A DNA stretch of 64,000 nt from Gammaproteobacteria bacterium (GCA_965243395.1 CBDEUS010000002.1:449310-513309); one strand, 5' to 3'. Shown: positions 15,296-64,000, counted from the first letter of the stretch. Notes: generated by a model not told the origin, from the letters alone. Numbers and translations are program-made.

Positions 15296-15296
15296 A

Positions 15297-15617: not shown

Positions 15618-15659
15618 AGTTTATAAATTATTTAAATGATATGAATAGGAGTAGACGTT

Positions 15660-15848: not shown

Positions 15849-15870
15849 GTTTTTTTAACCTTAATTTAGA

Positions 15871-16275
15871 ATGTTTGATTTTGGATTTTGGGAACTTACC
15901 ATAGTGATGGTAATTGCATTATTGGTAGTAGGCCCTGAACGCCTACCTGCATTGGCGGGTCAAATAGGAAAATGGGTAGGCAAAGCCAAACGTATGATAG
16001 AAGGCGTACGTGCTGATATTGAATCCGAAATTAAAGCTGCAGAATTAAAAGAAATTCTCGAAAAACAGCAAAATGAAATCGGTGAACTTAAAGAGATGCT
16101 CAAAGATACTCAATCTGATATTGAGAGAAGTTTCGATGAAGAAGGTGATCGTGAATTAATAGAAGCTGTAGAAAAACATATAGAAGCCAATAAAAATACT
16201 TCTGAATTGGAAACACAGCAGGAGTTATCTTTAAATACTGAAGCTGAATCATCGCAAAAGAATGAAGTCGACTGA
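15871..16275 (+). CDS. tatB: Sec-independent translocase TatB
   Basis: MFDFGFWEL...VVGPERLP N-terminus and a longer acidic C-terminal tail. Confidence 0.8.
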   Translation: MFDFGFWELTIVMVIALLVVGPERLPALAGQIGKWVGKAKRMIEGVRADIESEIKAAELKEILEKQQNEIGELKEMLKDTQSDIERSFDEEGDRELIEAVEKHIEANKNTSELETQQELSLNTEAESSQKNEVD

Positions 16276-20980: not shown

Positions 20981-21734
20981 GAAGATACTCCTCTTCGTTA
21001 ACTAAGGTTAAAAGATAAAAAGAAAAATACTCGAGTAATTTTCCTAAATGAGATTCGTCATAATTTTTGGTAACAACCTTAGTCTTTTGATTAAAACTTT
21101 AGGTGCTTCCCTCCCTCTGAACGACAAATCTCAATCTGAAATGGGTCGATGTATCCTTACAACAACCCACACAGACCAAACACAACAAACGTTGTATTTG
21201 TGCGACAGATTGCCTTTAGATGGGAACCAAGTCAATAAAAAAGTGTTGCAATTAAGCAACATTACTAAAATATCTGGTTACTTTTGAAGGATGAAAGCGA
21301 CTTTGAAGAAATCTTAAGCCCAAAATATTGTTGTATATGCACAACAAAATACTCACTAGAGTTGTAAGTCATTGATAAATGATAATTTCACGAAAATGAT
21401 ACTAACAAACTTAGGCGTTTAGTTTTGAAACTGGATCTGCACGTAAATTGAAAATGTTCTCCTGTTCATATGCAAGATTTTATGAAAGCTTAGAGTAGTT
21501 TATCCGTAAACTTTCTGAACTGATCTGAAATATCCACTTCTGTACGACATGCTTCTATATATTAAGCCAGTCAACAACATTGAATGGACAACTAGGATGT
21601 CTGTGAATTTACTCATTGCCCTTTTTATATTAGTTGTGGGCGCAGTAATACTAATACGTAACTAAGCTCAAACTATAAGGTAAAATAATTACAATTTGAT
21701 GCACATGGAGTGATACTTCTAATTCTATGAATAA

Positions 21735-22145
21735 TTAATGAGAGCGAGAAGTAAAGTTATCAATTGGCATAAAATTCAATTTTTCTTCGGCTTGGAATTC
21801 GCGGTCAAATATTAACTCAATTCCGATTTCACCATTTTGCTCGACCGCTTTTAACTGCTTCAGGTCAGGTAAGGTATGTGCTAGATAGGCACAGGCTGCC
21901 GCAGCAATTGTTTCTTCATCATTTAGCAAAGCTGATACTAGATTAGCACTTACAAATTGTATTTTTTGTTCAAAATTAGGATTATTAATTAATTGGTCTC
22001 CAAGCTCTAAACCTAGATCAAGTTTTTCTTCCATAAGTTTTAAGGACTGTTGTTGTGCATCAGAAAGCTCTTTTCCTCTATCATATTCAAGAATGGGATT
22101 ACCATTTACTTGAATAACTAGAATTTCTGACTGATTTTTTTCCAC
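21735..22145 (-). CDS. Hypothetical protein
   Basis: 136-aa ORF with a plausible RBS context; no family recognised. Confidence 0.35.
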   Translation of the reverse strand: MEKNQSEILVIQVNGNPILEYDRGKELSDAQQQSLKLMEEKLDLGLELGDQLINNPNFEQKIQFVSANLVSALLNDEETIAAAACAYLAHTLPDLKQLKAVEQNGEIGIELIFDREFQAEEKLNFMPIDNFTSRSH

Positions 22146-22216
22146 GGATCAAGTAAAAATTTTTGCTAATAATCAAACTTAAAGGTTGATTTATAATTCA
22201 ATAAACTTGAATTTAT

Positions 22217-24253: not shown

Positions 24254-24629
24254 ATGTCTGCGAATTAGTGAATTTTCGATTTGAAATTAATATTATAGTA
24301 CTTCAGCAGTTTACCTATAATGAATATTGGCCAAACATTTCTGAATTTGGCTATAGCCGAGTTTACATAAGTTAAATCATTAAAATTGATGTGAATTCAA
24401 TTCAAAATCCATAGTATTATTAGGGTTTAAATGTAAAATGATATTGTTAGTTGACGACCAATATTAAATTGACAGTTTAAGAAATAACCAACTTACATAC
24501 ACTGTAATACAGCTGCAAAATTTAAATTTAACTAGATTTTTATCAAAATAATTTTTGTACGCATTTAAGCAACATAAACCACAACTGAATGAATGCAATT
24601 AAAATATTCATTGCATCAAGGAGATATTA

Positions 24630-25919
24630 GTGAGTAATAAAGCACAACAAGGATTTTCCACACGAGCCATTCATGCCGGAGCCTCACCAGATCCTTCCAC
24701 CGGTGCACGTGGAACCCCAATACATCAATCAACCGCTTTTGTATTTGATGACGCAGATCATGCAGCTGCATTGTTTGGGTTAGAACAGGCTGGTTTTATT
24801 TACTCACGACTTACGAATCCTACGGTAAGTGTATTTCAAGAAAGAGTGGCAAGCTTAGAAGGGGGTGTGGGAGGAACCTGCACATCTTCTGGACATGCAG
24901 CACAATTATTAGCTCTGTTTGCATTAATGAGCAGTGGTGATGAGTTTGTGGCGTCCAATAAGCTTTATGGAGGATCGATTACACAATTTGTGCATAGTTT
25001 TAAAAAGTTTGGCTGGAAAGTGAATTTTGTTGATCCAATAGATCCGCAAAACTTCCGCAAAGCAATTAACGAAAAAACCAAGGCGGTGTTCACAGAAAGT
25101 TTGGCGAATCCAGGTGGCGTTGTTTGTGATATAGAAGCCATTGCTGCGGTTGCACATGATGCAGGTATACCTTGTATTGTTGATAACACACTTCCTTCAC
25201 CGGCTTTATGTCGTCCCATAGAGTTTGGTGCTGATATTGTTGTGCATTCCACGACAAAGTTTATTTCGGGTCATGGTAACGCCATGGGAGGTGTTGTTGT
25301 GGATAGTGGCAACTTTGATTGGTCTCAAAATGACAAATTCCCGGATTTAGTACAAAGTTGTGGTGCTTACCATGGTTTAAAGTTTTATGAAACTTTTGGC
25401 AATATGGCTTATACGATGTTTAGTCATGCAATTGGTTTGCGTGACTTGGGCCCGGCCATGTCCCCTATGAATGCATACTTATCATTAACCGGTGCAGAAA
25501 CTTTGCCTCTACGGATGCAAAAACATGCTGACAATGCCTTGGAAGTTGCAACATGGTTACAAGGCAACCCAAATGTAACTTGGGTATCGTATGCAGGATT
25601 GCCTGATAATGAATTTAATACACTGGCTAAAAAATACTGCCCAAGTGGAGCTGGGGCTGTGTTTACCTTCGGTGTTGCAGGCGGATATGACATGGGTTTA
25701 AGTATTGTAAGTAATTGCAAGCTACTTTCGCACTTAGCGAATATTGGTGATACGCGCTCACTTATTATTCACCCAGCCTCAACTACCCATCGTCAGTTGA
25801 CTGAAGAGCAACAAATTTCTGCCGGTGCAGGTCCTGATGTTGTACGTCTGTCGATTGGTTTAGAAGATGCTGCTGATATTATTGCAGACCTTGATCAAGC
25901 GATTGCTGCAAGTAGTTAA
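24630..25919 (+). CDS. metY: O-acetylhomoserine sulfhydrylase / Cys-Met metabolism PLP enzyme
   Basis: PLP-lysine motif STTKFISGHGN, 429 aa, gamma-family fold length. Confidence 0.8.
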   Translation: MSNKAQQGFSTRAIHAGASPDPSTGARGTPIHQSTAFVFDDADHAAALFGLEQAGFIYSRLTNPTVSVFQERVASLEGGVGGTCTSSGHAAQLLALFALMSSGDEFVASNKLYGGSITQFVHSFKKFGWKVNFVDPIDPQNFRKAINEKTKAVFTESLANPGGVVCDIEAIAAVAHDAGIPCIVDNTLPSPALCRPIEFGADIVVHSTTKFISGHGNAMGGVVVDSGNFDWSQNDKFPDLVQSCGAYHGLKFYETFGNMAYTMFSHAIGLRDLGPAMSPMNAYLSLTGAETLPLRMQKHADNALEVATWLQGNPNVTWVSYAGLPDNEFNTLAKKYCPSGAGAVFTFGVAGGYDMGLSIVSNCKLLSHLANIGDTRSLIIHPASTTHRQLTEEQQISAGAGPDVVRLSIGLEDAADIIADLDQAIAASS

Positions 25920-50070: not shown

Positions 50071-50721
50071 ATGTATAAATCAATTAGTTCAATTATCTTT
50101 GCGTCACTTTTTGTTTTGATCGCAAATAATCTCAATGCGAAAGACATCCCAGGGTATACATATAGTGAATCTAATCTAGAGACAGCACCCTATACCTTGA
50201 AAGATTTGAAATTGTTAAAAACCACTGTGTTGTTTACTGAAGACGATGCCAAATGGTTACGCAAAAGTCGTAAGGTACTTGAGCCACATGCAGAAGAAAT
50301 TTTAGATACATGGTATGGCTTTGTTGGTTCCCATCCTCATCTTATTTACTACTTTTCAAATAAGAAGGGTGAGGCAGATGCTAATTATCTGGCTCGAGTA
50401 CGCGCACGGTTTATTCAGTGGGTCTACGATACTGCAGATGCAAATTATGATCAGGATTGGTTGAACTATCAGTATGAGATAGCCAAGCGCCATCATCGTA
50501 TTGGTAAAAACAAGGTAGATGATGTGCAATCAGTAGACCATATCCACTTCCGCTATGTAGTCGCTTTACTATATCCCGTCACGGCAACATTAAAACCTTT
50601 TCTTGAACGTAGTGAATATTCACCAGAGGAAGTAAATGCGATGCATCAAGCTTGGATCAAATCTGTATTGATGCAGACGATTTTATGGAGCCACCCATAC
50701 ATCAATACAAATGAATTTTAA
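50071..50721 (+). CDS. Secreted hypothetical protein, possibly protoglobin-like fold
   Basis: Signal peptide; weak resemblance of the central helical region to sensor-globin/protoglobin domains; low certainty. Confidence 0.3.
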   Translation: MYKSISSIIFASLFVLIANNLNAKDIPGYTYSESNLETAPYTLKDLKLLKTTVLFTEDDAKWLRKSRKVLEPHAEEILDTWYGFVGSHPHLIYYFSNKKGEADANYLARVRARFIQWVYDTADANYDQDWLNYQYEIAKRHHRIGKNKVDDVQSVDHIHFRYVVALLYPVTATLKPFLERSEYSPEEVNAMHQAWIKSVLMQTILWSHPYINTNEF

Positions 50722-50782
50722 CCATTTAAAAGGTAGCCGAAGTAAATTTACTTTGGTTGCCTTTGTTTTTCGGGAGATAGAA

Positions 50783-51073
50783 ATGTCTGCATATTGTTTA
50801 TTTGATAATTTGAAAGTTACAGACCCTGCTGCACTTGAGGTATACAAGAAACATGTGGGGCCAATTGTTGCGAAATTTAGTGGCCGTTATGTAGTTCTAG
50901 GCGGCCAATGTGAAATTGTCGAAGGCGATTGGAAACCAACTTACCCGGTAATGATTGAGTTTCCGAGACTGGAGGATGCTCGTAACTGGTATCAATCTGA
51001 AGAATATGATGAATTAAAAACAATACGTTTGAATGCTACAAAATCAAACGCTGTGTTTATTGAAGGAATCTAG
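50783..51073 (+). CDS. DUF1330-family protein
   Basis: About 96-aa core MSAYCLFDNLKVTDPAALEVYKKHVGPIV...GDWKPTYPVMIEFP typical of DUF1330; the upstream in-frame extension from 50711 is probably not translated. Confidence 0.5.
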   Translation: MSAYCLFDNLKVTDPAALEVYKKHVGPIVAKFSGRYVVLGGQCEIVEGDWKPTYPVMIEFPRLEDARNWYQSEEYDELKTIRLNATKSNAVFIEGI

Positions 51074-51091: not shown

Positions 51092-51141
51092 TGGTGGGCC
51101 CGGTAGGACTCGAACCTACGACCAAAGGATTATGAGTCCTT
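51092..51141 (-). tRNA. 3' fragment (about 50 nt) of a tRNA with anticodon CAT (Met or Ile2); probable att site
   Basis: Reverse complement reads AAGGA-CTCATAA-TCCTT (anticodon arm, CAT) / TGGTC / GTAGG-TTCGAGT-CCTAC (T arm) / CGGGCCC-A-CCA; no D arm or 5' acceptor strand (GGGCCCG) upstream. Confidence 0.7.
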
Positions 51142-51250
51142 AATCCTATCTACTTGTATAAATAGTTTAACTACCTTTTAAAAACTATAATACGTTGTAA
51201 TTAAAGAACATTTTTACAACGAGCGTAGTGCATCTATAGTGCAAAGGTAG

Positions 51251-52549
51251 TTGAACATGAGTTTAAAAATGGTGGCCCTGAGGGTGGATAGCAGATCCGG
51301 GGATTTTTCTGTTCGGACCGCTTCCAACAAAATATATCTCTCCAAAGCGAATCTTAAAAAAATTCCCTTACCTGAAAAAGGTACCCAACGGATTTGGGAT
51401 ACCGAACAACCGGGTTTGTTTGTGCAACTTTCCTCAACCGGAAACGCGGTCGCCTACTATCGCTATCGATTGAATACACGTCAGCGTGATTATCGTATCG
51501 GACGCGTCTCGCATTTGAGTATGAAATCGATTCGTGAAGCGGTACGCAAAGCGGCAGCGAAAGTCGAATTGGGTCGCGATCCGCAACAAGAACGTAAAGA
51601 GGAAAAGAAACAACAACTCGAAGCCTTACGTCAACAAGAGAAAGACACGCACTCCACTTTGGGAAACTTTTATTACAACTATTATATTGATTATGCCAAG
51701 GCGCATTTAAAAGACTACGAAGCACGTTTGCATTCGATCGAATTTAATTTTCAACAATGGTTCGAATGGCCGATGGAAGAACTCACTCCTGCGGTAGTGA
51801 GTCAATGGCGCAATCAAAAAATGAATACACCTGTGATCCGAGGTAAAGGAGCTAATCGAACGGAACATCCGAGAAAACCGGGTGGTGTGAATCGACCGAT
51901 TGCCTATCTTCGTGCTCTACTCACCGTTGCATTTGAAGAAGTCGAGATCATCGACAAACATCCGTTGGCAAAATTCAAACCTTTAAAAGAACCCAAAAAT
52001 CCTCGCAAACGTTTTTTACGTGAAGACGAGTACATTCGCCTGCGCAATACCTTGCGGGAACGCGAAGACTATCTCCCGGTGTTCATCGAACTCGGAATTC
52101 ATACCGGACTTCGCATGAATGAAATGCTGACACTGACTTGGGAGAATGTGAACTTTCAAGAGAAGTGTCTCATCGTGGAATCACAATATGCCAAGAGCAA
52201 ACGTCAGCGAACGGTACCGTTGAATGACACCATCATCGCAATGTTGCGTGAATGGAAATTTAAGATTCAACGCTTCGGACCGTGGGTGTTCACCAATCCT
52301 GAAACCGGTAACCACTATGTTTCGATTAAACGGGCTTGGGTTGCTGCGATGAAGGAAGCCAATATTGAAGACTTTGTGCGTCAGGATTTACGGCGCACCT
52401 TTGGTAGTTGGTTAGCTGAACGTGGAGAAAGTATTTTTGTCATTAAAAATTTGCTTGGTCATAGCACCGTACAAGTCACCGAAGGGCATTACGCATATCT
52501 ACAAGATGATTCACAACGCCAAGCGGTGAAACGACTCGAAAATAAATAG
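51251..52549 (+). CDS. int: Tyrosine-type site-specific integrase (phage/P4-like)
   Basis: Catalytic residues in context: GLRMNEM (Arg), HxxR region, LGHSTVQVTEGHYAYL (Tyr); N-terminal SAM-like arm-binding region; adjacent to a tRNA fragment. Confidence 0.85.
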   Translation: MNMSLKMVALRVDSRSGDFSVRTASNKIYLSKANLKKIPLPEKGTQRIWDTEQPGLFVQLSSTGNAVAYYRYRLNTRQRDYRIGRVSHLSMKSIREAVRKAAAKVELGRDPQQERKEEKKQQLEALRQQEKDTHSTLGNFYYNYYIDYAKAHLKDYEARLHSIEFNFQQWFEWPMEELTPAVVSQWRNQKMNTPVIRGKGANRTEHPRKPGGVNRPIAYLRALLTVAFEEVEIIDKHPLAKFKPLKEPKNPRKRFLREDEYIRLRNTLREREDYLPVFIELGIHTGLRMNEMLTLTWENVNFQEKCLIVESQYAKSKRQRTVPLNDTIIAMLREWKFKIQRFGPWVFTNPETGNHYVSIKRAWVAAMKEANIEDFVRQDLRRTFGSWLAERGESIFVIKNLLGHSTVQVTEGHYAYLQDDSQRQAVKRLENK

Positions 52550-53077
52550 ATGCAGCAAAAATACACACAAAATGCACAAGACGGGGCGTCTTTTAACTAC
52601 AAGTTCACCCCGGAGAAGATTGATGAATTTTTAGAGCAACTGGGTACTAACGGTAATATTTCACTTTCTGCAAAGATGGTGGGTATGAGTCGGCGTGCAA
52701 TATATGCCTTTGCAAAGCGCGATCCGTCATTTCGAGAAGCGATGGATAATGCACGTGCGGAAGCACAAGACATGCTGTATTACGAGACTTGGCGGCGTGC
52801 AGTGCAGGGTGTGGAGGAGACGCTTTATTATCGTGGGAAGCCGTGTGGTACTGTCACTCGATACTCCGATAAATTACTTGCCTTGTTATTACGACGACAA
52901 TTCGGGATGCCGTTTTCGAAAGATGATGATTATCAGTTCACAAATAATGAAGATGAATCTCACTCAGCAACAATTGTCGATGACAACCTTGATTTAAGCA
53001 AACTCACAGACGAAGAATTAAATACGTTTGCGCACTTAATTGATAAGTGTTCTGTCGAAGAAAATATTTCTTTTTAA
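52550..53077 (+). CDS. Island hypothetical protein with HTH (phage regulatory or terminase-small-like)
   Basis: Start abuts the integrase stop; HTH-like ISLSAKMVGMSRRAIYAFAKRDPS. Confidence 0.35.
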   Translation: MQQKYTQNAQDGASFNYKFTPEKIDEFLEQLGTNGNISLSAKMVGMSRRAIYAFAKRDPSFREAMDNARAEAQDMLYYETWRRAVQGVEETLYYRGKPCGTVTRYSDKLLALLLRRQFGMPFSKDDDYQFTNNEDESHSATIVDDNLDLSKLTDEELNTFAHLIDKCSVEENISF

Positions 53078-53211
53078 TTTTCTAATTTAGTAACTTCAAT
53101 CTGTATCATAATGATAGTGATTGATCTTACTTTTATATTTTTACACTTAGCAATTATTGCTCAATACTAAAGTTATAGTATCTATAATCTACTTTTAACT
53201 GGAGATTAAAA

Positions 53212-53475
53212 GTGGATCTAGAACATAACAGAACAGGCTCTATACAAGACGGCCAAATTCTTACATGTGCTGAAGCCGCTAAGTATTTAGGTGTGAGCAT
53301 ACTTGCTCTACGCGACTCACGATATTCGAATAAGTTATGTGGACGTAAATCACCGAAACATATTAAATTGAATCACCGTACTATTGTTTATCGTAGAACT
53401 ACTTTAGATGAGTGGCTTAATTCACTCGAAGAATTTGAGACTGCTTCAGAAGCTAGATCAGCAATTCAAAAATAA
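53212..53475 (+). CDS. AlpA/excisionase-like small DNA-binding protein
   Basis: 87 aa, ILTCAEAAKYLGVSILALRDSRY HTH followed by a basic region, typical position near an island integrase. Confidence 0.45.
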   Translation: MDLEHNRTGSIQDGQILTCAEAAKYLGVSILALRDSRYSNKLCGRKSPKHIKLNHRTIVYRRTTLDEWLNSLEEFETASEARSAIQK

Positions 53476-53491
53476 TGAAAATAATAAATAA

Positions 53492-53914
53492 ATGTCGACT
53501 AAGTATCATTATACAGATGACCTTGTATTAATAGATGAAGGAGATTATGAGTTTATTTATGATCATCACGAAACGTATCTATATTTAGGAAAATCCCCGA
53601 AGTTAGCGGTGTGGTTTAAAATTATTTCGAAGAGTAAGTTTAATGGAATATATATTCCACGATACTACAATGTTGCAAAAGTTAATGGAAAAAGAGAAAT
53701 AAATGGATTATTTGATCCAAAAGGTCAAAAAAGTGATCTCGTAAGAGAAGCGACACTAGTCACGGGGGAGATACCTGAAAGATATAATGAATCTCTAAGT
53801 TCATGGAAAGGAATAGTAGTTCTTGGGTATGTGCATGCAGTTCAAAAGAACTCAAATGGTCAAAAGTTACATGAAAAATTGCACTATTCTGTAATTAAAT
53901 ATTTATATATATAA
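53492..53914 (+). CDS. Island hypothetical protein
   Basis: ORF with a close-coupled start after the previous gene; no family recognised. Confidence 0.3.
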   Translation: MSTKYHYTDDLVLIDEGDYEFIYDHHETYLYLGKSPKLAVWFKIISKSKFNGIYIPRYYNVAKVNGKREINGLFDPKGQKSDLVREATLVTGEIPERYNESLSSWKGIVVLGYVHAVQKNSNGQKLHEKLHYSVIKYLYI

Positions 53915-54162
53915 GTATTCTAGTATTTCAAATTAGTATTTTAAATTTGTTAATTAGCTATCCCTAACCCTAGTGCCATACCAGTTCCTTCTCCCTTCCT
54001 ATTGCTAAACTTATTCCCACACCTATATACACATGTGAATATTCAGGTGTGTTATTGAAGACGATAATTTTTTCTATAACCCTGTAGTATAAATTTAATT
54101 TAATCGCAATCATTTACTCTAATAGGTCAAAAACCTATACATCAGCACCTGGTCAAACAATT

Positions 54163-55053
54163 TTAGTCCCACTCAACAGCCACGCTTATCACAGCATCTA
54201 ATACAATGGCAGCATCAGCTGCTGCTCGTCCATGCAAGGTAACTCCTAATTCCATTGAGTGTTCAAGTGATGCAGTATTCATGTTTGAGGATCCAATATA
54301 TACAGCATCTCTGTCACATAATATTACTTTTGCATGAAATGTTTCTCTTCCAGAGCCTACAATTTTTGGTATCGAATAGTTTAAGACGCGTATTGCATTC
54401 TCCTTCAGCCACATTGAAATAGTATCGTAACCTTGAGGATAGTCACTTCGAGACGGTGAATCTAAACTTCTTAGGATAAGTACCCGTTCAACATCAGCGT
54501 TTATAAGAGAAAATAATTCCTGAAGCCACAAAGCACCTTTTATATCAAAAAATGGTGTCATTACCACAACTCTTTGTTTTGCAGTTTGAACCATGTTTTG
54601 AAACGCGCGAGCAGTTGGTTCCAGTTCAGATGTCTTCCATCCAAACTCTGATAACTTTTTTTCTAAATTACTTGGTTTTGGTGGTTTAGTTAAAACGACA
54701 CTTGCATTTGTCGCGTCTTTATGAATATTAGAAATGTAAAAGTCTATAGTACTAAGTGCAAAAGCCAAACGTTTAAATAACTTGTAGGTACTACTAAGAG
54801 GTAAATAGCCATTATCAACCTTTTTGATAACTTTTAGCTCTACAGATTTTTCAAGTACTTCATGTGTAGCAGCTTCTTCTGTTAGTCCTAATTGTGCATG
54901 ATCAATCAATGTACGTTCAGATTGTACTAACGTTTCTGGTAACTCTGCCCAAGAATCAAAAAGTGAAGATGCTAAGCTCGCTCTATACACAAGTCCTACA
55001 ATTATTTGTTTCTCAAACGCTGAAAGTTTTTCTGCTGACATTGCAAAAAACAC
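54163..55053 (-). CDS. PLD-family (HKD) nuclease, DrmC-like
   Basis: HKD motif FHAKVILCDRDAVYIGSSNMN (H-x-K-x4-D-x6-GSxN); single PLD domain, 296 aa; 4 nt downstream of the DUF1998-like gene. Confidence 0.7.
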   Translation of the reverse strand: MFFAMSAEKLSAFEKQIIVGLVYRASLASSLFDSWAELPETLVQSERTLIDHAQLGLTEEAATHEVLEKSVELKVIKKVDNGYLPLSSTYKLFKRLAFALSTIDFYISNIHKDATNASVVLTKPPKPSNLEKKLSEFGWKTSELEPTARAFQNMVQTAKQRVVVMTPFFDIKGALWLQELFSLINADVERVLILRSLDSPSRSDYPQGYDTISMWLKENAIRVLNYSIPKIVGSGRETFHAKVILCDRDAVYIGSSNMNTASLEHSMELGVTLHGRAAADAAIVLDAVISVAVEWD

Positions 55054-55057
55054 TAAA

Positions 55058-57265
55058 TTACATTATTGAATCAAAATAACCATCGATTGCGCCTTTCCTA
55101 ATATCGAATCGCTTTGGCCGACCGCCTATTGATCGTAGTACTGTTCTTGATAAAAGTTTGTTGCCGGCAATACAAGATGTTTCAGGAATCATGATGCAAT
55201 CTGGACAAGCCCCTCCTCTTTGAGTACATAGAGAACCAGTACCACATTGTGTTGCTTTAATGCTTAACAGAGATGAAAGCATTGCAGTTCCTGAATTACG
55301 CCACATTGCAGAGAGATTTCCCAAGTCCATAGTAGTTCCACTACGATAGACCACAAAGGCAAGATCTGCAGGGAATATATATTCTCCTAATGAACCAAGA
55401 TCCAAACCAGAATATTCTGACACATGCTTCATCAATAAGTGCGAGTAGCTGTGAAGTAGTGTGTAGATATAATAATAAACTGATGGTGAATCAGACTGTT
55501 CTAACTGATCTAAAAAAGGCTTCATAGGTTGGGCTACATTTAATATACCTGCGCCAATTTTCTCAGTGGGATTTAGGGAGAACATGTCAGAACAATTTAA
55601 GTCTTTAAGCCAAGCTACAACCGTTTCTTCTTTAAGCCTCACATACAATGCTTCATTACTTTGCTGGACAACATACACGGGGTGACATGATATGTCGTTA
55701 TATTTTACTTTTGGGAAAAGCCTCATTCTTACAGGCATTCTCTTACCTCGTTTCTCTAAAGTTGGAGTCGACTCCATCCGTGAGTAACCAAAACTAAATT
55801 TGCATAAGTCAAATTCACGAATAAGACCCATATCATCAAGGCCCAACTTATCTAATAGCTCACGTGTATAGATTTGCTGTTCTTCAGTCTCTTCTATTTT
55901 ATTTGGCGCTAGATCTTCATCAAGTCTGGTAAACGAAACATACTTTTTTTTCCCATTTGTCTTTGTTTCTACATCCAGCCTTGTATTCTTTAAAGCAGAA
56001 TGTTCTACAGCTAATCTAAATGGGTCAAACTTTGAAGCAAATCGAGTTTGACGTTCATGAATATTAGCCAGGACATTACTAGGTAAATTCACCTTTGCAA
56101 TTAAAATTTCTCGTCTATGCAAATCATCTATAATCCGTTTTTTAGTTACATAAGCTGTATCTAAAGATTTCTTTAATATTTTACTTGTTTGGTCATCTGA
56201 ATTTTCTAATAGCTCTTCAATATCTCTAATTGTACTAACTGCACTTCTATATTCTGCGAGATCAATATTACATTCATCCTTTCCTGCACATGCATTTTCG
56301 ACATCTTCATCTGTAATTAAATCTACAGCGAATCCATATTGTATTGCTACAAAGTCTTTGAGAGCTTCTTCTCGACTTGGACGTAATCGTGTCAAAAGAT
56401 CTTGGCTTCCGTCTTTGAAGTCGACAAATAAATCTGATTTGAGGTAGTAAGCGTTTGATGCCCGATAAGGCGTTGCTTCCATTCGAACATGAGAAACCCA
56501 TGCTGAATAATTGAATCGTCCGATTATAGCTAAGGTGTCTTTGTCATTTTGCAACCATTTCCCTGGGTGTAATGGTTTATCACAAACTGCACACTCAAAA
56601 AACCATTCTCCTATTTGAGGGGATTTTCTATTAAGCCTAAAGTCGGCACTATTACACGTACATCTGCTTCGACGCGGAACGACTTTTTCTTTTTTACTAT
56701 CCCATTGCCATTGGCCCGGAAATGGAGCAGCCCAGTTGCCCGACCAATGAACAAAAATAACATCAAGTTGTTCCCAATCGCATTGCCCCTTTTTTCTAGG
56801 ATTTGGACAATATTCTGGTGTTAACTTACTCAAATTCTTGTCGAGCTCATTTAAGTTTTTATAATCTTTAAACATTCCACATGTTCTACACACAAAGCTA
56901 AGTGGTGCCGGTGTGTATCCCATATGTGACGGTTTGCATAGATGAAACCTGTCTTCACCAGGTAGTTGAAACTCAGAACATGATGAATTAAGCAATGCCC
57001 TATCTACACACTGAAGCGGTTTCACTGCTTCATTTGAGTTACCCCCCTCTCGAGCAGACATTGCCCTATCAAACCATGATGAACCTAGCTCATTCATGCG
57101 TTCATATATAAGCTCTTTGGTAGGTTCACTAAGATCAACTGAAGCACCAGCTGTTGAACGCGAAATACATGCACCGAGACCACCTTCAAATGTAAAAAAA
57201 CTTTCAGGCGCATAAGCAGTCGCAAGTTGATTTCGAGATCGAGACATAGTTTTAGCTTTAGCCAT
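55058..57265 (-). CDS. DUF1998-like Cys-rich protein, DrmB-like
   Basis: Cys clusters CRTCGMF…CPNPRKKGQC, CTCNSADF…ECAVCDKPLH and C-terminal CTQRGGACPDCIMIPETSC; sits between a helicase and a PLD gene as in DISARM. Confidence 0.55.
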   Translation of the reverse strand: MAKAKTMSRSRNQLATAYAPESFFTFEGGLGACISRSTAGASVDLSEPTKELIYERMNELGSSWFDRAMSAREGGNSNEAVKPLQCVDRALLNSSCSEFQLPGEDRFHLCKPSHMGYTPAPLSFVCRTCGMFKDYKNLNELDKNLSKLTPEYCPNPRKKGQCDWEQLDVIFVHWSGNWAAPFPGQWQWDSKKEKVVPRRSRCTCNSADFRLNRKSPQIGEWFFECAVCDKPLHPGKWLQNDKDTLAIIGRFNYSAWVSHVRMEATPYRASNAYYLKSDLFVDFKDGSQDLLTRLRPSREEALKDFVAIQYGFAVDLITDEDVENACAGKDECNIDLAEYRSAVSTIRDIEELLENSDDQTSKILKKSLDTAYVTKKRIIDDLHRREILIAKVNLPSNVLANIHERQTRFASKFDPFRLAVEHSALKNTRLDVETKTNGKKKYVSFTRLDEDLAPNKIEETEEQQIYTRELLDKLGLDDMGLIREFDLCKFSFGYSRMESTPTLEKRGKRMPVRMRLFPKVKYNDISCHPVYVVQQSNEALYVRLKEETVVAWLKDLNCSDMFSLNPTEKIGAGILNVAQPMKPFLDQLEQSDSPSVYYYIYTLLHSYSHLLMKHVSEYSGLDLGSLGEYIFPADLAFVVYRSGTTMDLGNLSAMWRNSGTAMLSSLLSIKATQCGTGSLCTQRGGACPDCIMIPETSCIAGNKLLSRTVLRSIGGRPKRFDIRKGAIDGYFDSIM

Positions 57266-57306
57266 TATTTTTTTCTCATAATTGATTTGGTTTCAAATAC
57301 TCATTT

Positions 57307-60300
57307 CTATGAATCAATGTCAGCTCCTGAGCCTTTTCTTATAAACATCATTGCACGGCCCGTTACACCATCTTGTACTCTATTATTAGCAGCATCGAAT
57401 TTTGATTCTTGAATTTCACCTGGAAGATCGACATCTCGGAGCGATGTCATAGGTCTTAGTAAGGGAGAGCGAACTTTAAAAAAATTTGACAGGTATGTGG
57501 CACTTACGAATTTGTCTTCATCTAGATCTTGTTGATAGTGATTTAGTTGTTCTTTAAGTAAAGCCCGATAATAATTTTTTCCTTCAGGTGAAGGCGAAAA
57601 TTCAAGTCCAAGTGCTTTTTCCATGAAAGTATTGGTTTCTTTTAAATTGTCCGGTTTATTTAGAAAGTTTTTTACGTCATCAGCCATCATATAATAAGGT
57701 GACTTATCCTTATTTTTTTCATTTGCAGCACATAATTCTTTAATTGCATTTATGCCGCATACATACTCTTGAAAGAAACTTGGCATTACACGAACAAGAG
57801 CTTTTTCTGCCCATCTATCTACAGATGCTGGGAGAATCATCCTTTCTAAAAACCTATGAAAAATATCATGTATCTCCAACACAAATCGGTCTCTATATCG
57901 TTGAGGTATTGGTACCAGCAATGAAAAACCGACATGCGTACGACCGACACGTGAAGAAGCTTGAATATATTGAGCGATATCCGACGGCATTCCTGCAAAA
58001 AACATTGCATTAAATTCTTCAACATCAACTCCATGTGATATTGCTGATGTTGCAATTATTGATCTCAACGTATTATTAAGATCAGGAAAAGGTTTATTTA
58101 TACCGACTCGTTTCTCTGCTTTTCGAATAACTTCCTGGATATCTCCAGCTGACACAGCTCCAGAAATAAGTTCTGAAGAAAGTATGTGCTCATCATAACC
58201 ATTGGCTTTGTGGAGCTTTTCAAATTCGACTTTCTCAGTATCAATGACTTGATCACCACCTTTTTTATTAGTTACATATGTCAATGAGATACGATGTAAG
58301 TCGATAAGGGTTAATAGTGTCTCGATACTTGCTTCAGTAAGTAACCGCACATGTTGTTTATATAATGCTCCGGGTGATACCCATTGTATTAATTTTTCTC
58401 TTGCATATTTTTGTTTAGTGGAATCTTCACTTCGTAAATATTCATACATTTCTGTTATAGCAAGGTGATAGTGTCCAAGTACAGAAGCCATTGCCACAGT
58501 GTGACGATGATTATTCGTAAGGACAGAAACATATATTCGAGCCCAATGGCTTCTTATTTCAGTTTCATGTATGGGTATCTCTACGCGTTCAGAATCTTCC
58601 AAAGTATTGTCTGGGTCTTTGGGATTCATATAAAAGGAACTGTATAATTCCGGTCCCGGATATGGAAATTGTATCGTCGAAGACCGTTGATATAGATTTC
58701 GCATTTGTCGATTTGGATCTGCAACTGTTGCAGATGCAGCAATCACTTTAATTTTTCTGCGAACAGTTGAGTTTGGTTCACAGCAAATAGCGCCATCAAG
58801 CAATGTAGCAAGTTGATCAAAAGCGGATTCTAATGCTGACTCAAATAGTGCTGCAAATGTTCCTAGCGATTCATCTAGTAAATGAGCCTCATCTTGAATA
58901 AGCAAAGATGGAAATGGATCATAAAATCTTTTTTCACCAGTTGAAAAAACTGGAAACAACTTTCGTGAATTAGAACCAGGATGCCCATCCCATTGTTTGA
59001 GCTGGTTTGGGGTGTGTAACCGATCCGAATCATTTAAAATTAATGGAGCAAAACCAAAAATTCCAAAGAATTTTCTAATTGTGCTTTGGGTATGACCTAA
59101 AGCAGCAAGTTTATCAATCGTGCCCAACAAAACTGATGGTGCAAGGCAATAGATGTCTTCATCTACTATATAAAAAGGAAGTGGTGTCGGAGACTTAAAA
59201 CGAGCGTTCCATGAGCATTTTTCTTTTGACGATGTACAAAAATGTCCTAATGTATTCGCACTGTTAGCAGAATGACGCCTAAGTGCTATAGCATCATCTT
59301 TATTATTATGACAAAAAGGGCATTTAGTGATTTTCAACCATCGTTCTTTTGCGCTTTTATATGGTTGAGTTTCTTTGAATTTAGTTTCATCGGTTGGAGC
59401 AACATCTATCTCAGTTGGAACGTCATTATATGCTTCATCTTTATGCCAATTAGGTGTGTTGCTGCGACCTACCCAGAAACCCAAGGAAAATATCTCGCCA
59501 GGATGATGACGTAAGTAGCGTATTTCCTCAGCAGCACTCATCACCTCAAAAGTTCTTCGTGCTTGCTGCAGTGTTAATAATCGAAGAGGATAACGCATGA
59601 GGGCTGATACACCGAAATGCTTTCCTCGTAGTCGATCTAAAAACAAAACAAAAACTAGTAAACCAAGAAAAGCCTCTGACTTACCCCCACCAGTTGAAAA
59701 GTAAAGAAGCGTTACAGCATTTGCATGCATTGCTGTCTCTGGTGTGTAAAAGCTATGGTATTCAGGAATACGAGTCACAAACGAAGGGATAGTTGCCAAA
59801 ATAAATGCCAGTTGAAACAAACGCCACTCTTTATAACCTTTTGCTTTGGCAACTTTGTGCATTGCTGTGTTCATAGACACCCATGCCTCAAACGGAATGC
59901 CAAGAGGAGATTCCTGAACTCCTGGACCGCTCCAATGCTTGCTTGATACATCTAAAATTTCAATTCCACAGCGTATCGCACTTAACTCATCACGCCATTT
60001 CTTAAGATCTTTTTGAAACTTATCTTCCTCCAGAATCTTTTGTTCCTCAGAATCTGGTTCTTCCAAACCTGAATCTACAGGATTATTTTTTATTTTATTT
60101 AGCCAAGACTCATATGAATCCAGTAGTGGTTTAAGTCCTTTTACACAATCTGGCTGTGACAATTTTTCAATATTGCTTTCTACTGTTACTTCAGCAGGTA
60201 TTATTCTTGGTAAAATATACCTTGGTGACCATGTCGTAGTTAGTAAATGTTGATCACCGATTTTTGTCATCACGACACCACCATTGAATCCAAGGGCGGG

Positions 60301-61485
60301 ATATTCTAAGTAGCGATTGTATTGATAGGATGGTTTGACACGGTCAAGACGTAAGGGCTTGTGTATTGAAGCTGGTAATTCTACCGACATTGATACATGG
60401 AACAGTGATGGTTCGATTTCTTTATAATTTGTTTTGTTTAATGGCTTCGTCCAATTCTCAATTGCAATATGAATTGTTTTTCGTGATGGTATTAAAGGAT
60501 CTGGTACTGTCTGAACCACCCATCGAAAATCAAATTCCGGTACTAACACCTTTAAATCGGATGTTCTTACCGAATCAAGATATTTTTCCCAGTTGCGTAT
60601 ATCAGATGGTTTAACTTTCAGCCCTTTTCTGTAGCACCAATGATGACCGCCAAAATTTTCATCAGTGCTCGTTGCCCAGTTATTTAATTGTTCTTTAATT
60701 GAATTATTAAGTAAGTTTGTTGCATTCGATGCATCCAACTTATCTAATGTGAAGTTAAACGAGGGAAGCTCTAGTTCAAGGCGAAGCCATTTGGGCGGTG
60801 GTAATATTTCTTCGACTACGTCATCGGGCAATGTGCCATTGCATTGAACTTCTTCCATTGGAGGATTTTTATCTTCATTAGGTAATTCATCATTTTCTTC
60901 CGCTTCATTATCAGAAAACTCAAATTCATCCTTATCAATCTGACTACGATCGAGCTCGTTATTAAAGGGTATACCCATTTCTTTATGAATAGCCTTGCGC
61001 ACTTGCTCGCTTTTTGTTTTCCAATCAGGGTGGTCATATCCACCCTCTAAAGAATTCCTCAATTCTGAAAGTGCAAAACGGGTTTTAGTTTTTATCTCTT
61101 TGTTAATTTTAGAGGTAAGTGGGAAATTTGGTGCTAACCTGCCATCAGGTTTTACGTCTTCTTGTGAGGGCAATACTCGTATGTATACAGCACCATTAAC
61201 TGAAACTTTGATATTTGAATTCTTTGCATCTGATCTGACTTGAAAATCTAGGCCATGTGCACTTATCTGAATTGGATTGGCTTCTTCATCACCATCACGC
61301 TCACCTTCAGGCATTGGCACTATGAATTCTGAAACAAGCTGTAAACTAGGTTTACGTTTATATATTACTTTGTAAAATTCACCTCGTCCTGCCAATCGAG
61401 CAGAAACATTATTTAGCAAACTGTCAACGACAGCTTCTTTATATCCGTCATGAATTTCACGTGGATCTTTGCTAAGAATAGACAT
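57307..61485 (-). CDS. Large SF2 DEAH-box helicase, DrmA-like
   Basis: Motif I FSTGGGKSEAF, motif II LLIQDEAHLL, motif VI QASSRVGRT; about 570-aa N-terminal region of unknown function; internal CPFCHNN…HFCTSSKEKC zinc-finger-like insert. Confidence 0.75.
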   Translation of the reverse strand: MSILSKDPREIHDGYKEAVVDSLLNNVSARLAGRGEFYKVIYKRKPSLQLVSEFIVPMPEGERDGDEEANPIQISAHGLDFQVRSDAKNSNIKVSVNGAVYIRVLPSQEDVKPDGRLAPNFPLTSKINKEIKTKTRFALSELRNSLEGGYDHPDWKTKSEQVRKAIHKEMGIPFNNELDRSQIDKDEFEFSDNEAEENDELPNEDKNPPMEEVQCNGTLPDDVVEEILPPPKWLRLELELPSFNFTLDKLDASNATNLLNNSIKEQLNNWATSTDENFGGHHWCYRKGLKVKPSDIRNWEKYLDSVRTSDLKVLVPEFDFRWVVQTVPDPLIPSRKTIHIAIENWTKPLNKTNYKEIEPSLFHVSMSVELPASIHKPLRLDRVKPSYQYNRYLEYPALGFNGGVVMTKIGDQHLLTTTWSPRYILPRIIPAEVTVESNIEKLSQPDCVKGLKPLLDSYESWLNKIKNNPVDSGLEEPDSEEQKILEEDKFQKDLKKWRDELSAIRCGIEILDVSSKHWSGPGVQESPLGIPFEAWVSMNTAMHKVAKAKGYKEWRLFQLAFILATIPSFVTRIPEYHSFYTPETAMHANAVTLLYFSTGGGKSEAFLGLLVFVLFLDRLRGKHFGVSALMRYPLRLLTLQQARRTFEVMSAAEEIRYLRHHPGEIFSLGFWVGRSNTPNWHKDEAYNDVPTEIDVAPTDETKFKETQPYKSAKERWLKITKCPFCHNNKDDAIALRRHSANSANTLGHFCTSSKEKCSWNARFKSPTPLPFYIVDEDIYCLAPSVLLGTIDKLAALGHTQSTIRKFFGIFGFAPLILNDSDRLHTPNQLKQWDGHPGSNSRKLFPVFSTGEKRFYDPFPSLLIQDEAHLLDESLGTFAALFESALESAFDQLATLLDGAICCEPNSTVRRKIKVIAASATVADPNRQMRNLYQRSSTIQFPYPGPELYSSFYMNPKDPDNTLEDSERVEIPIHETEIRSHWARIYVSVLTNNHRHTVAMASVLGHYHLAITEMYEYLRSEDSTKQKYAREKLIQWVSPGALYKQHVRLLTEASIETLLTLIDLHRISLTYVTNKKGGDQVIDTEKVEFEKLHKANGYDEHILSSELISGAVSAGDIQEVIRKAEKRVGINKPFPDLNNTLRSIIATSAISHGVDVEEFNAMFFAGMPSDIAQYIQASSRVGRTHVGFSLLVPIPQRYRDRFVLEIHDIFHRFLERMILPASVDRWAEKALVRVMPSFFQEYVCGINAIKELCAANEKNKDKSPYYMMADDVKNFLNKPDNLKETNTFMEKALGLEFSPSPEGKNYYRALLKEQLNHYQQDLDEDKFVSATYLSNFFKVRSPLLRPMTSLRDVDLPGEIQESKFDAANNRVQDGVTGRAMMFIRKGSGADIDS

Positions 61486-61505
61486 ATATAAGTTTTATAG
61501 TTTCG

Positions 61506-64000
61506 TTAATGTGAAATATCATTACGCTTATTTTGTGGTAGGGTAATATTTTCTACACAATAAACACAGCGCAATGCTTCTTGTTGCAACTGTCTAATAA
61601 CTTTCTTTGAAATTTTTCTATAAATGAATGCACTTTCTGGCTGAAACAGTATTTCTGCATACTGTGCAGAGAGTTGGCGCCCCAGCTCTATATTTAAACT
61701 ACGCGCATTACGAATGTAATTCCAATACATAACTGCTTGTTCGTCATTTATTTCTAATGCCATGCAAAATATTTTAAAAAACTTGAAATCTTTTGGTGCA
61801 TGCGGCTTAGTATCCCCATCAATTTTTAAATCTAACCAATAGTTGATACGGTCTGATCTACAATTATTAGCAGTCGTGTCGATATCGATCATTTTTTTAT
61901 GGATTACCTTCGCTAAAGTCGAACGTTTTTGTTCTTTAAAAATAATTTCGCAGCGATACTTGATATCTTCATGGTATATCTTAAGTAGGACACGTTGAGG
62001 ATAGACTTCTGAAGGTGAGCCATCGTTAGTAAGCTGCAAGACAGATTCAAGCTTAGTTCGAAGTTCATCATCCATTACAAATATAAAATCACCTTCCTCA
62101 ATTGAACGCGCATTGACTCGACGAAAAAATGGATCCTCATCAGCTTCATAGCGATATAGCATACCTGTGGCGTAATGATGAGAACCATCCTCCAATCCAA
62201 ATTTGAAGTATGTTTGATTGACTTTGTCATTTGAATTATTAACAGCTTCTAAATTGAACTGCATATTCATTTTGTGCAACTTTTCAATGTTCAGAGGATT
62301 TGGTATTTCGTTAAGTTTTAACGTCAGCTGTTGTATGAGTAATCCCATCCTTCCTCGATAAGGTCTAAAAACTTCTATCCCATTCATGCTTTTGAGAGTT
62401 ATTAATGTAGATTTAGCCTGCTTATAAGTAATTAATACTGATGTGCCATGAGGAATATCTGGGTGTGCGATTAAGCAACGTATTACATCAGAATTAACCC
62501 CAATAAATAAAAAATGGCAAGCTTCAAATTTTTCAGAAAGAACTTTGCGGACAGTAAGTAGCGTATGCCAATCTATATTTAATTTGACCGTTTCCCAATC
62601 ATTAGCAAGCTTTCGTTTTAAAAAGTTTTGCGCCAACTCAATATAATCGATGTTTGGTAAAACTATAAGAAGCTTTTTACGATCTTCGATTACATATTTT
62701 TTTACCTCACTGAAAAGCTTGGATGCCAAGGGAGTTGCGTCTGCCCACATATCAATGAGTTTTTCGGCTTTACTAATAGCCTCGTCTGCTTCTTTTCTTT
62801 TAGCATTAAGTTGTCCCGACTCGAGTACCTCTTGTAGTCCAATACGGACAGATGACCATGAATTTTTTTGATTTACAAATAGGTGGCCTTCCTTTGTTTT
62901 TGTTAATTTAGCTGTAAGATCACTGTAGCCTGCAGGCAGATTTGACAAACGCGCAATATAGCAACAAGCATTAATAACAGCTTCATAGCTTGAGCTCTCA
63001 TAGTTGCCTGCTTCTTTGGCAAGTCGTTGAAATGATAAAGCAACCTGAGACGCATCACGGTCGACAATATCTACTTTGAAATTTGCAAGACTCTTTTGCT
63101 CGGGCTTCCAGTCTGCTGAAAGAGCTTGGGGAGACAATATCGCATTAACCCTGTCAGATTCTGCAGCCCATATTTTCTCTTTATATTTTAATTTTAATTT
63201 TACTAGTTTATCTCGAAGTACAAAAAATGTTTTTGGATCGTCTGTGACAATTAAAGCACCACAATTTTCATATCCATTTTCAATAGCAACATTCAAAAAG
63301 TCAGGAATTTTCATAATAGATTTGTAGTTGCTTAGAGAAGTTGCATCAAGCAGAATAATTTCTGGCTGGTTATTCTCTTTTAATGCTTCTGATCCAAGAG
63401 AGTCTTCCCAATTGCTTTTGTTTGTGTTTTGAGGTAACACCATCATGGCACCAGGCGCATAAATTGGATTACCCCACTCGTCATTTACTTTCTCTCGTAA
63501 TATTCGCCGTCGTGCTAACTTATCAACCTTCTTAAGTGAACGTTCTAAAGGGAAGTTAGCCACTGTAGTCCAATCTTGTTGTTCTGGAACGTAAGTAAAT
63601 GCTGGTATGAGCTCGGCTAGAGATGGATCGTCCATCTCAGGATTATTTTCCCTAATATCATTCAGCGCTGTGAGCATTGCCTTGAATGATTTGGATTGTG
63701 TATGACACTCGAATTTAAGCCCCTCTTCTTCATTATGTACCCAAAGCGATCGAAACAAGTCGCTTAGTTGTTCTCGGTTCACTAAAGTAGATTGTAAAGA
63801 AATTCGGTATGTACGCTTTCCTGGATATAAGAGTGTTCTCATACCGCGCAAATCTTTTGCAAAGTTACGCTCAATGTTTGCTAGTGCATGCAGTAACGCA
63901 AGCCCGAAGAGACGTACGGGCCAGATAAGACACAAATTAATTTCGCCCTTTTCAGTAGTTTCTAATGTTAAATCAACTAATTCACTAGCCCATGGCTGTA
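61506..64000 (-). CDS. Large protein of unknown function, 5'-truncated by the window edge (>830 aa); DrmE-like position upstream of the helicase
   Basis: Reading frame stays open to position 64000 on the minus strand; no helicase, SNF2 or methyltransferase motifs in the visible 830 aa; 20-nt gap to the helicase start. Confidence 0.4.
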   Translation of the reverse strand, partial: QPWASELVDLTLETTEKGEINLCLIWPVRLFGLALLHALANIERNFAKDLRGMRTLLYPGKRTYRISLQSTLVNREQLSDLFRSLWVHNEEEGLKFECHTQSKSFKAMLTALNDIRENNPEMDDPSLAELIPAFTYVPEQQDWTTVANFPLERSLKKVDKLARRRILREKVNDEWGNPIYAPGAMMVLPQNTNKSNWEDSLGSEALKENNQPEIILLDATSLSNYKSIMKIPDFLNVAIENGYENCGALIVTDDPKTFFVLRDKLVKLKLKYKEKIWAAESDRVNAILSPQALSADWKPEQKSLANFKVDIVDRDASQVALSFQRLAKEAGNYESSSYEAVINACCYIARLSNLPAGYSDLTAKLTKTKEGHLFVNQKNSWSSVRIGLQEVLESGQLNAKRKEADEAISKAEKLIDMWADATPLASKLFSEVKKYVIEDRKKLLIVLPNIDYIELAQNFLKRKLANDWETVKLNIDWHTLLTVRKVLSEKFEACHFLFIGVNSDVIRCLIAHPDIPHGTSVLITYKQAKSTLITLKSMNGIEVFRPYRGRMGLLIQQLTLKLNEIPNPLNIEKLHKMNMQFNLEAVNNSNDKVNQTYFKFGLEDGSHHYATGMLYRYEADEDPFFRRVNARSIEEGDFIFVMDDELRTKLESVLQLTNDGSPSEVYPQRVLLKIYHEDIKYRCEIIFKEQKRSTLAKVIHKKMIDIDTTANNCRSDRINYWLDLKIDGDTKPHAPKDFKFFKIFCMALEINDEQAVMYWNYIRNARSLNIELGRQLSAQYAEILFQPESAFIYRKISKKVIRQLQQEALRCVYCVENITLPQNKRNDISH

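Follow-up and report, generated by a model that had tools for sequence, protein, structure and literature searches.

DISARM defense systems share drmA, drmB, and drmC; class 1 adds drmD and drmMI to these genes, and class 2 adds drmMII, which may or may not be accompanied by drmE. In PADLOC, DrmD together with DrmMI, or DrmE together with DrmMII, must be present for a class to be assigned. The DrmA-DrmB complex binds single-stranded DNA or 5' overhangs, is autoinhibited by a trigger loop, needs its ATPase activity, and is stimulated more weakly by methylated DNA; drmC is dispensable, and how self is told from non-self and what DrmD and DrmE do are questions that have yet to be answered (Bravo et al. 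2022). Within the YprA family, the DISARM branch has been described as containing "many uncharacterized DISARM-like classes", and in the ARMADA systems the YprA protein is a single fusion of a RecA core, a BrxA-like insert, an OB-CON-DUF1998 module, and a C-terminal Vsr nuclease, accompanied by a PglX-like methylase and by a BrxHII-like helicase that is active (Bell et al. 2025, bioRxiv 10.1101/2025.09.15.676423). Here, we describe an operon in the region from position 51,092 to position 64,000 of a 64,000-nucleotide stretch of DNA from a Gammaproteobacteria bacterium (GCA_965243395.1, CBDEUS010000002.1:449310-513309), the whole of which we refer to as the window. The operon encodes homologs of DrmA, DrmB, and DrmC downstream of a large protein that we call X. 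We consider it likely that it represents a diverged, methylation-associated DISARM-type operon carried on an island inserted in a tRNA gene, with a proposed regulatory role for X and with a methylase gene that is predicted to lie just past the end of the window.

The operon is located on the minus strand and consists of 4 genes of 296, 735, 1392, and more than 830 codons, which according to the coordinates of the open reading frames (ORFs) are separated by gaps of 4, 41, and 20 nucleotides (nt). This is the layout previously proposed in a sequence-only reading of the region, in which the helicase gene, the gene for a Cys-rich protein, and the gene for a PLD nuclease were taken to be a drmA-drmB-drmC core in that order. 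The PADLOC models for DrmA, DrmB, and DrmC bore out the proposal, with best E-values of 5.9e-84 for the 1392-amino acid (aa) protein, 1.4e-17 for the 735-aa protein, and 1.3e-11 for the 296-aa protein.

The 1392-aa protein also matched the Pfam family Helicase_C (pfam00271; 7.4e-8), and its only match in a sequence search against PDB was the DrmA protein from Serratia (7s9v_A, 2.4e-40). The E-value against the NCBIfam model DISARM_DrmAS was 1.2e-99, yet the score of 334.8 bits falls below the curated cut-off of 950 bits, and proteins named DrmA by PGAP were about 27% identical to it across roughly 60% of the length. The helicase motifs were intact, with motif I (GGGKS) at residues 599 to 603, motif II (DEAH) at 865 to 868, motif III (SAT) at 918 to 920, and motif VI (QASSRVGR) at 1175 to 1182. 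The best, and the only specific, matches of this protein were to DISARM proteins and not to a housekeeping helicase family, in line with what the earlier reading had proposed.

For the 735-aa protein, the match to the NCBIfam model DrmB_fam had an E-value of 4.2e-12, yet the score was 45.7 bits as compared to a curated cut-off of 240 bits. The sequence-only reading had described this protein as DUF1998-like, and here the expectation failed in Pfam: there was no match to PF09369 (DUF1998) or to any other Pfam family, even at E <= 10. The assignment to DrmB nevertheless stands because it is supported by DrmB-specific models and by the predicted fold. In PDB, only DrmB (7s9v_B) was recovered by sequence, with an E-value of 1.6e-3 for the single sequence and of 2e-5 with a profile of 46 sequences. 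The AlphaFold2 model, which had a pLDDT (the predicted value of the local distance difference test) of 64.9, was compared with known structures using Foldseek, and the sole significant match was again 7s9v_B, the DrmB protein from Serratia (E = 2.1e-7 over 617 columns), followed by a next match with an E-value of 0.2. The structural comparison with DrmB, put forward in the earlier reading as a check on the 735-aa protein, was thereby favorable. A C-terminal cluster of 4 Cys residues (C674, C680, C687, and C690) and 2 N-terminal clusters containing CxxC were invariant in the family.

The 296-aa protein matched the Pfam family PLDc_2 (pfam13091) with 40.2 bits (3.8e-10), above the cut-off of 27 bits, and a total of 23 PADLOC DrmC models. 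It contains the HKD motif HAKVILCD...GSSN at residues 240 to 257 (window positions 54283 to 54336), which follows the pattern HxK(x)4D...GSxN. The PLDc match, the HKD and DEAH motifs, and the Cys clusters were all located, in agreement with the DEAH helicase, Cys-rich protein, and HKD nuclease of the sequence-only reading, and the 1392-, 735-, and 296-aa proteins are real but distant homologs of DrmA, DrmB, and DrmC, respectively.

The label X is used here for the 930-aa protein encoded upstream of the DrmA-like gene. The sequence of full-length X (P0001) was 100% identical to the predicted protein over the 830 residues encoded within the window. No significant match to X was found in Pfam, PADLOC, NCBIfam, PHROGs, or the PDB sequences, the last of which were also searched with a profile. 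A profile of the X family was built from 80 homologs and searched against 1.84 billion representative proteins, and only 257 sequences were recovered at E <= 1e-3, of which the full-length ones were about 820 to 990 aa long. A set of 10 from among the most remote full-length members gave no PADLOC match at E <= 0.1 and no significant Pfam match, and the source names of the family members were all "hypothetical protein". As judged from these searches, the X family is small, self-contained, and unnamed.

The AlphaFold2 model of X had a mean pLDDT of 80.6, and the top matches in a Foldseek search against PDB were solely to superfamily 2 (SF2) helicases, with Hef first (4e-6), followed by RIG-I, MDA5, and LGP2; further matches were to Chd1, WRN, Dicer, RapA, ALC1, and SNF2. 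The matches to the model identify an SF2 fold and no subfamily. A DExH/D string was present in none of the 80 family members, and a Walker-A-like string in only 2 of the 80, in both cases within a disordered, basic N-terminus. At the position where a P-loop is expected after the first core strand, X contains C-L-V-W-P-A-K/R, in which W126 and P127 are invariant, and L-L-D-A-T, in which D318, A319, and T320 are invariant or nearly so, closes the strand at whose end DExH is normally found. The family has motifs of its own with invariant or nearly invariant residues, namely QPW, WP, LLDAT, TDDPK, and YRGR. The conserved Y-R-G-R-x-G motif at residues 647 to 652 is one that we take to resemble the SF2 helicase motif VI. 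Based on the modeled fold and the family alignment, we read X as an SF2 pseudo-helicase, that is, a helicase fold without Walker A or DExH. It was also noted that residues 29 to 71, which are encoded beyond the end of the window and precede the helicase-like core, are lysine-rich and predicted to be disordered (pLDDT < 50); this segment could be a DNA-binding tail.

The suggestion in the sequence-only reading that the upstream gene is drmE, or drmMI/drmD, was not supported. Apart from the lack of matches in PADLOC, Pfam, and NCBIfam, X is not a methylase, it matched neither SNF2 (pfam00176) nor DrmD in Pfam and PADLOC, and a comparison with genuine DrmD using hhalign gave a probability of 0.3% and no profile similarity. 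Genuine DrmD, used as a positive control, obtained E = 0 against the PADLOC DrmD models. No relationship between X and the neighboring DrmA-like helicase was found with hhalign. As for DrmE, there was no match to X or its 10 remote relatives in PADLOC (E <= 0.1), nor to X in NCBIfam, in searches for which there was no DrmE positive control; a locus on a Bacillus plasmid that was tried as a control for class 2 and DrmE gave no DrmE match and could not serve. Both libraries presumably include DrmE models. At the level of sequence, a very remote relationship between X and DrmE may still exist.

To place the operon among its relatives, we collected 43 loci by looking up X homologs as exact proteins, scanning 185,579 species genomes, and searching plasmids, and their gene order was established by tblastn with the window proteins and a methylase from Achromobacter. 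The order methylase, X, DrmA-like, DrmB-like, and usually PLD was uniform across a beta- and gammaproteobacterial clade, and the same order was also found in metagenome-assembled genomes (MAGs) of Synechococcus, Fimbriimonadales, and Trueperaceae. In every related locus of the beta- and gammaproteobacterial type for which there was DNA at this position, the methylase gene was located directly upstream of the gene for X. The gaps between the operon genes of the relatives were in the range of tens of bases, or else the genes overlapped, as by 4 nt for the methylase and X genes in locus L043 and by 17 nt for the X and DrmA genes in locus L003. The methylases were N6_Mtase/Eco57I proteins of 576 to 593 aa with the domains PF02384 and PF07669; their best PADLOC model was MTase_II (e-164 to e-175), and they showed weak similarity to PglX (about e-10). 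The window probably ends just before the corresponding methylase gene.

The identity of the proteins in the related loci to those in the window was 63% to 75% for the DrmA-like and DrmB-like proteins, 43% to 64% for X, and 53% to 62% for the PLD protein. The methylases were 39% to 100% identical among the loci, and such a wide variation is as expected if the methylase sets the specificity. The PLD gene was present in 21 of the related loci and absent from 9 to 10 loci with enough downstream sequence, and in the latter no alternative ORF with an HKD motif replaced it. This optional status of the PLD gene agrees with published work in which drmC was dispensable.

Some individual loci differed at the PLD position. 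In the closest named relative, a MAG of Candidatus Thiodiazotropha (L001, positions 15999 to 17028), the PLD gene was reduced to an N-terminal remnant of 19 residues beside a fragment of an IS21 IstB gene, which suggests loss of the nuclease gene mediated by an insertion sequence, with the rest of the operon intact. A 424-aa ORF was located directly after the DrmB-like gene in the PLD-less locus of Roseateles saccharophilus (L017, 19043 to 20317), and a 119-aa ORF was found at this place in those of Pseudomonas indica and Stutzerimonas stutzeri (L018 and L036, 19131 to 19490). Neither the 424-aa nor the 119-aa ORF contained an HKD motif, and they may be alternative effectors.

More distant variants were identified on plasmids. 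The Polaromonas plasmid pPNAP03 contained the same 5 genes, with identities of 24% for X and 41% for the DrmA-like protein. An alphaproteobacterial variant was found on the Rhizobium johnstonii plasmid pRL10 (L040, NC_008381.1 18943-39082, with the genes at 5983 to 16983), in which the order is a gene for an X homolog, a gap of 3 nt, the DrmA-like gene, the DrmB-like gene, the PLD gene, and an N6 methylase gene last. The DrmA-like helicase on this plasmid was 37% identical over 99% of its length, and the X homolog is a shorter protein of 662 aa that is homologous to residues 376 to 881 of X (hhalign 95%, E = 3.9e-8). Loci of the pRL10 type thus resemble the operon in the window in having homologous DrmA-like, DrmB-like, PLD, N6 methylase, and X proteins, and differ from it in that X lacks the N-terminal RecA1-like part and the methylase gene is located at the 3' end of the operon. 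It follows from this arrangement that the adjacency of X and DrmA is the one that has survived rearrangement, and that the conserved core of X corresponds to its C-terminal two-thirds. Similar helicases (35% to 37% identity over the full length) were also observed on plasmids of Sinorhizobium, Mesorhizobium, Sphingomonas, and Afipia. The neighbors of the related operons included an unrelated integrase (BLASTP E = 0.12) and genes for a HipA toxin, a MobA/MobL relaxase, YhaV/PrlF, and HEPN/NTase proteins, and other operons were located on plasmids. These varied mobile neighborhoods support the idea that the operon travels horizontally as a cassette.

A comparison with the 2 DISARM classes showed both likenesses and differences. 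As in class 1, represented by Serratia sp. SCBI and by a canonical locus on a Planktothrix plasmid (L039; drmD, a gene for a 1533-aa PglX-type methylase, drmA, a DUF1998 gene, and drmC), a PLD nuclease comes after a DrmA helicase and a separate DrmB protein with OB-CON-DUF1998, the operon includes an N6-adenine methylase (in the relatives), an extra SF2-fold protein is encoded upstream, the nuclease is optional, and the genes are carried on mobile DNA. In contrast to class 1, X falls outside the SNF2 helicases, lacks both Walker A and DExH, and shows no sequence similarity to DrmD; the methylase of the relatives is a compact N6_Mtase/Eco57I protein, whereas DrmMI is a PglX-like protein of roughly 1500 aa; the order is methylase-X and not drmD-drmMI; and DrmA and DrmB are about 27% or less identical to the canonical proteins and score below the curated family cut-offs. 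As in class 2, represented by Bacillus paralicheniformis (drmE-drmA-drmB-drmC-drmMII), the gene for a large protein immediately precedes drmA, after which come drmB and drmC. Unlike class 2, no C5 cytosine methylase was found in the window or the examined relatives (no PF00145 protein downstream of drmC in the window, and none annotated in loci L001 to L005 and L043), and X matched no model in PADLOC or NCBIfam. Overall, counterparts of DrmA, DrmB, and DrmC were present, and none of the class-defining accessory features that can be judged here was found; this includes the PglX-like DrmMI (pfam13659), as judged on the methylases of the relatives.

The combination of a YprA-family helicase, an SF2-type protein, and an adenine methylase, delivered by integrative elements that target tRNA genes, is shared with ARMADA I and II (Bell et al. 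2025). Unlike in ARMADA, separate genes encode the helicase and the DUF1998 module, the nuclease is encoded on its own as a PLD protein, and DrmA and DrmB gave the best matches. Furthermore, none of the window proteins matched BrxHII or PglX in Pfam and PADLOC. The Dpd, Druantia, and ARMADA systems were considered as alternative identities and rejected; there were no deazaguanine genes, the helicase and DUF1998 are split, and the PLD protein is separate. We read the system as an undescribed DISARM variant that fits neither class 1 nor class 2 nor ARMADA. In the literature, nothing relevant was found on a "class 3" or "type III" DISARM or on this arrangement of genes, although a mention may exist in a supplementary table.

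The operon is located to the right of a partial tRNA gene and an integrase gene (Table 1), and this region is, as part of the reading that we consider likely, the integrase-proximal end of a mobile island inserted in a tRNA gene. The tRNA fragment consists of the anticodon stem-loop (CUCAUAA), the variable loop, the T arm (GGTTCGAGTCC), the 3' strand of the acceptor stem, and the CCA end, which together represent the 3' two-thirds of a tRNA. Its Rfam score (E = 0.08) narrowly missed the gathering score of 29 bits. No complete tRNA was identified in the window with ARAGORN, and in the absence of the D arm and the 5' acceptor strand the fragment itself forms no cloverleaf. From its CAT anticodon, the tRNA could be of the Met, fMet, or Ile2 type. 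The 3' end of the fragment faces the housekeeping genes on the left, where genes for aceE, two-component systems, a sigma-54 activator, protoglobin, and a DUF1330 protein are located, and the truncated 5' end faces the integrase. This orientation places the island to the right of the fragment. The geometry is that expected for a displaced copy of the attachment site (att), presumably marking the distal end of an element inserted in the 3' part of a tRNA gene, in which case an intact tRNA should lie beyond the window. Neither a second copy of the fragment nor an intact tRNA was found within the window, and therefore only one boundary of the island is visible. Hence, of the "integrase/tRNA-bounded island" in the sequence-only reading, the tRNA(CAT) fragment and the adjacent tyrosine integrase were recovered at one end, whereas the second boundary was not seen in the window.

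Table 1. Features of the island and the operon, in order of their position in the window
Feature	Position	Strand	Evidence or remark
3' tRNA fragment, anticodon CAT	51092..51153	-	Direct reading; Rfam tRNA 26.4 bits
Tyrosine integrase, 432 aa, TTG start, arm-type DNA-binding N-terminal domain	51251..52549	+	Pfam, PHROG
Terminase small-subunit-like protein, 175 aa	52550..53077	+	phrog_4044 1.8e-29; weak Pfam Sf6_terminase 0.0022
Helix-turn-helix protein, 87 aa	53212..53475	+	Pfam HTH_17 1.7e-4, under gathering score
140-aa ORF between the mobility module and the defense operon	53492..53914	+	No match in Pfam, PADLOC, or PHROGs
DrmC-like PLD nuclease, 296 aa	54163..55053	-	PLDc_2, PADLOC DrmC, HKD motif
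DrmB-like OB-CON-DUF1998 protein, 735 aa	55058..57265	-	PADLOC, NCBIfam, PDB sequence and fold
DrmA-like SF2 helicase, 1392 aa	57307..61485	-	PADLOC, NCBIfam, PDB sequence, motifs
X, C-terminal 830 of 930 codons	61506..64000	-	Gene runs off the end of the window

The integrase, which matched Phage_integrase (6.2e-26) and Arm-DNA-bind_3 (1.8e-11) in Pfam and the integrase family phrog_1 (3e-56) in PHROGs, is intact and, beside the tRNA 3' fragment, of the P4 type. The gene for the terminase small-subunit-like protein begins at the very first base past the stop codon of the integrase gene, and the 87-aa helix-turn-helix protein could be a regulator of the AlpA or excisionase type. With these 2 genes and the tRNA target, the island seems to resemble phage satellites such as phage-inducible chromosomal island (PICI)-like elements, and may belong to them instead of being a plain genomic island; it also seems to resemble the mobile elements carrying defense genes that were described by Bell et al. 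(2025). The final chromosomal genes ahead of the tRNA fragment encode a protoglobin-domain protein of 216 aa and a DUF1330 protein of 120 aa (50071 to 51073, plus strand) and overlap by 11 nt. Elsewhere in the window, the part with the lowest GC content (about 33% at positions 21000 to 25000) contains a gene (22217 to 24253, minus strand) whose 678-aa product has TPR repeats as well as an AAA_22 ATPase domain. This protein had no PADLOC match, and it may have been horizontally acquired. A nearby ORF of 440 aa (19658 to 20980, minus strand) had no match in Pfam or PADLOC.

Several other explanations of the operon were weighed against the reading of a diverged DISARM-type system. The association of the methylase with X is so regular, with the 2 genes lying side by side in all beta- and gammaproteobacterial loci and overlapping by 4 nt in one of them, that X might instead be a specificity, activating, or read-out subunit of the methylase, in which case a restriction-modification-like module would have been joined to a DrmABC effector. 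The greater spread in identity values of the methylase as compared to DrmA and DrmB is also what would be expected for a specificity module. However, in pRL10 the methylase gene follows the PLD gene, and the X homolog is still encoded 3 nt upstream of DrmA; we consider it unlikely that X is a partner of the methylase. Slightly more doubtful is the view taken in the sequence-only reading, in which the operon would be a usual DISARM of class 1 or class 2 with a divergent drmD, drmMI, or drmE as the upstream gene. The canonical order of the core genes, the SF2-type fold that X has in common with DrmD (Chd1, ALC1, SNF2, and RapA were among the matches), and the N6-adenine methylase that the relatives have in common with DrmMI-containing systems would all agree with it. 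Against these points stand the absence of matches to X in PADLOC, Pfam, and NCBIfam, whereas genuine DrmD is recovered with E = 0, the hhalign probability of 0.3%, the missing ATPase motifs, the size of the MTase_II-like methylase of 576 to 593 aa as compared to 1533 aa for the PglX-type DrmMI, the lack of a C5 methylase in the window and the relatives, and the scores of DrmA and DrmB below the NCBIfam cut-offs.

We give very little credence to the 2 remaining explanations. One is that the genes represent a housekeeping locus for a DNA-repair helicase of the YprA/MrfA or Lhr type, with an integrase nearby by chance. This is at odds with the DISARM proteins being the best and only specific matches, with the split of the helicase and DUF1998, with the presence of a PLD nuclease and, in the relatives, a methylase, with the patchy taxonomic distribution on islands and plasmids beside toxin-antitoxin, integrase, and relaxase genes, and with the location of the operon on the island side of the tRNA att fragment. 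The other is that the locus is a decaying, non-functional remnant of a defense island. Only a fragment and no intact tRNA was seen, the PLD gene is commonly lost in the relatives, and immobilized islands have been described (Bell et al. 2025), all of which would suit a remnant, but the 4 operon ORFs are full length, their catalytic motifs and family-invariant residues are intact, and so is the integrase.

Returning to the DISARM-type operon that we favor, some observations weigh against it. There is no methylase gene within the window, as the operon is cut at position 64000, and a methylase from the source genome was not recognized among the 120 homologs listed in a search with the methylase of the closest relative. 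The loss of ATPase activity in X is inferred from sequence motifs only, and the AlphaFold2 model of the DrmB-like protein is of moderate quality (pLDDT 64.9). The scores of the DrmA-like and DrmB-like proteins are far under the curated NCBIfam cut-offs for DISARM and DUF1998 is undetectable with Pfam, so that a mechanism taken over from Serratia DrmAB is extrapolated a long way. No homolog of X was found in the viral contigs of IMG/VR, which is neutral with regard to a role in defense.

Going by homology and gene context, the operon would be active in defense in a methylation-dependent manner, X would have a regulatory role, and a methylase would be encoded in this genome. The complete operon is predicted to contain 5 genes, for an N6-adenine methylase, X, the DrmA-like and DrmB-like proteins, and a DrmC-like PLD nuclease. 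By analogy with characterized DISARM systems, the methylase would mark the host DNA at its motif, and the DrmA-like ATPase, capped by the OB-CON-DUF1998 "canopy" of the DrmB-like protein, would load on DNA of an incoming phage or plasmid that is single-stranded or has a 5' overhang. The motor formed by the 2 proteins would then translocate, with its activation dampened by the methyl mark of the host, and the PLD nuclease would add a dispensable DNA degradation step. Placed in the slot of DrmD or DrmE, X may be an ATPase-dead, stoichiometric subunit of the DrmAB motor with a regulatory or DNA-sensing function, and it possibly couples the motor to the methylase. More tentatively, and with a likelihood that we put a little below even, the operon could represent a third, unnamed class of DISARM that is widespread in Proteobacteria, in which an ATPase-dead X has replaced DrmD or DrmE, gates DrmAB as a sensor of self and non-self or of DNA ends, and couples it to a compact, type-II-like m6A methylase.

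In the clade to which this operon belongs, the DrmAB motor is retained, but a helicase-fold protein devoid of ATPase motifs stands in place of the accessory helicase, and a small methylase in place of the giant PglX-type one. As such, the clade offers a natural minimal variant for asking which of the accessory functions in DISARM need ATP hydrolysis. Standard annotation misses the system: most family members are named "hypothetical protein" and have no Pfam domain, and the DrmA-like and DrmB-like proteins in the window score under the NCBIfam cut-offs and are hence not flagged by the family models. DISARM censuses probably undercount this clade.

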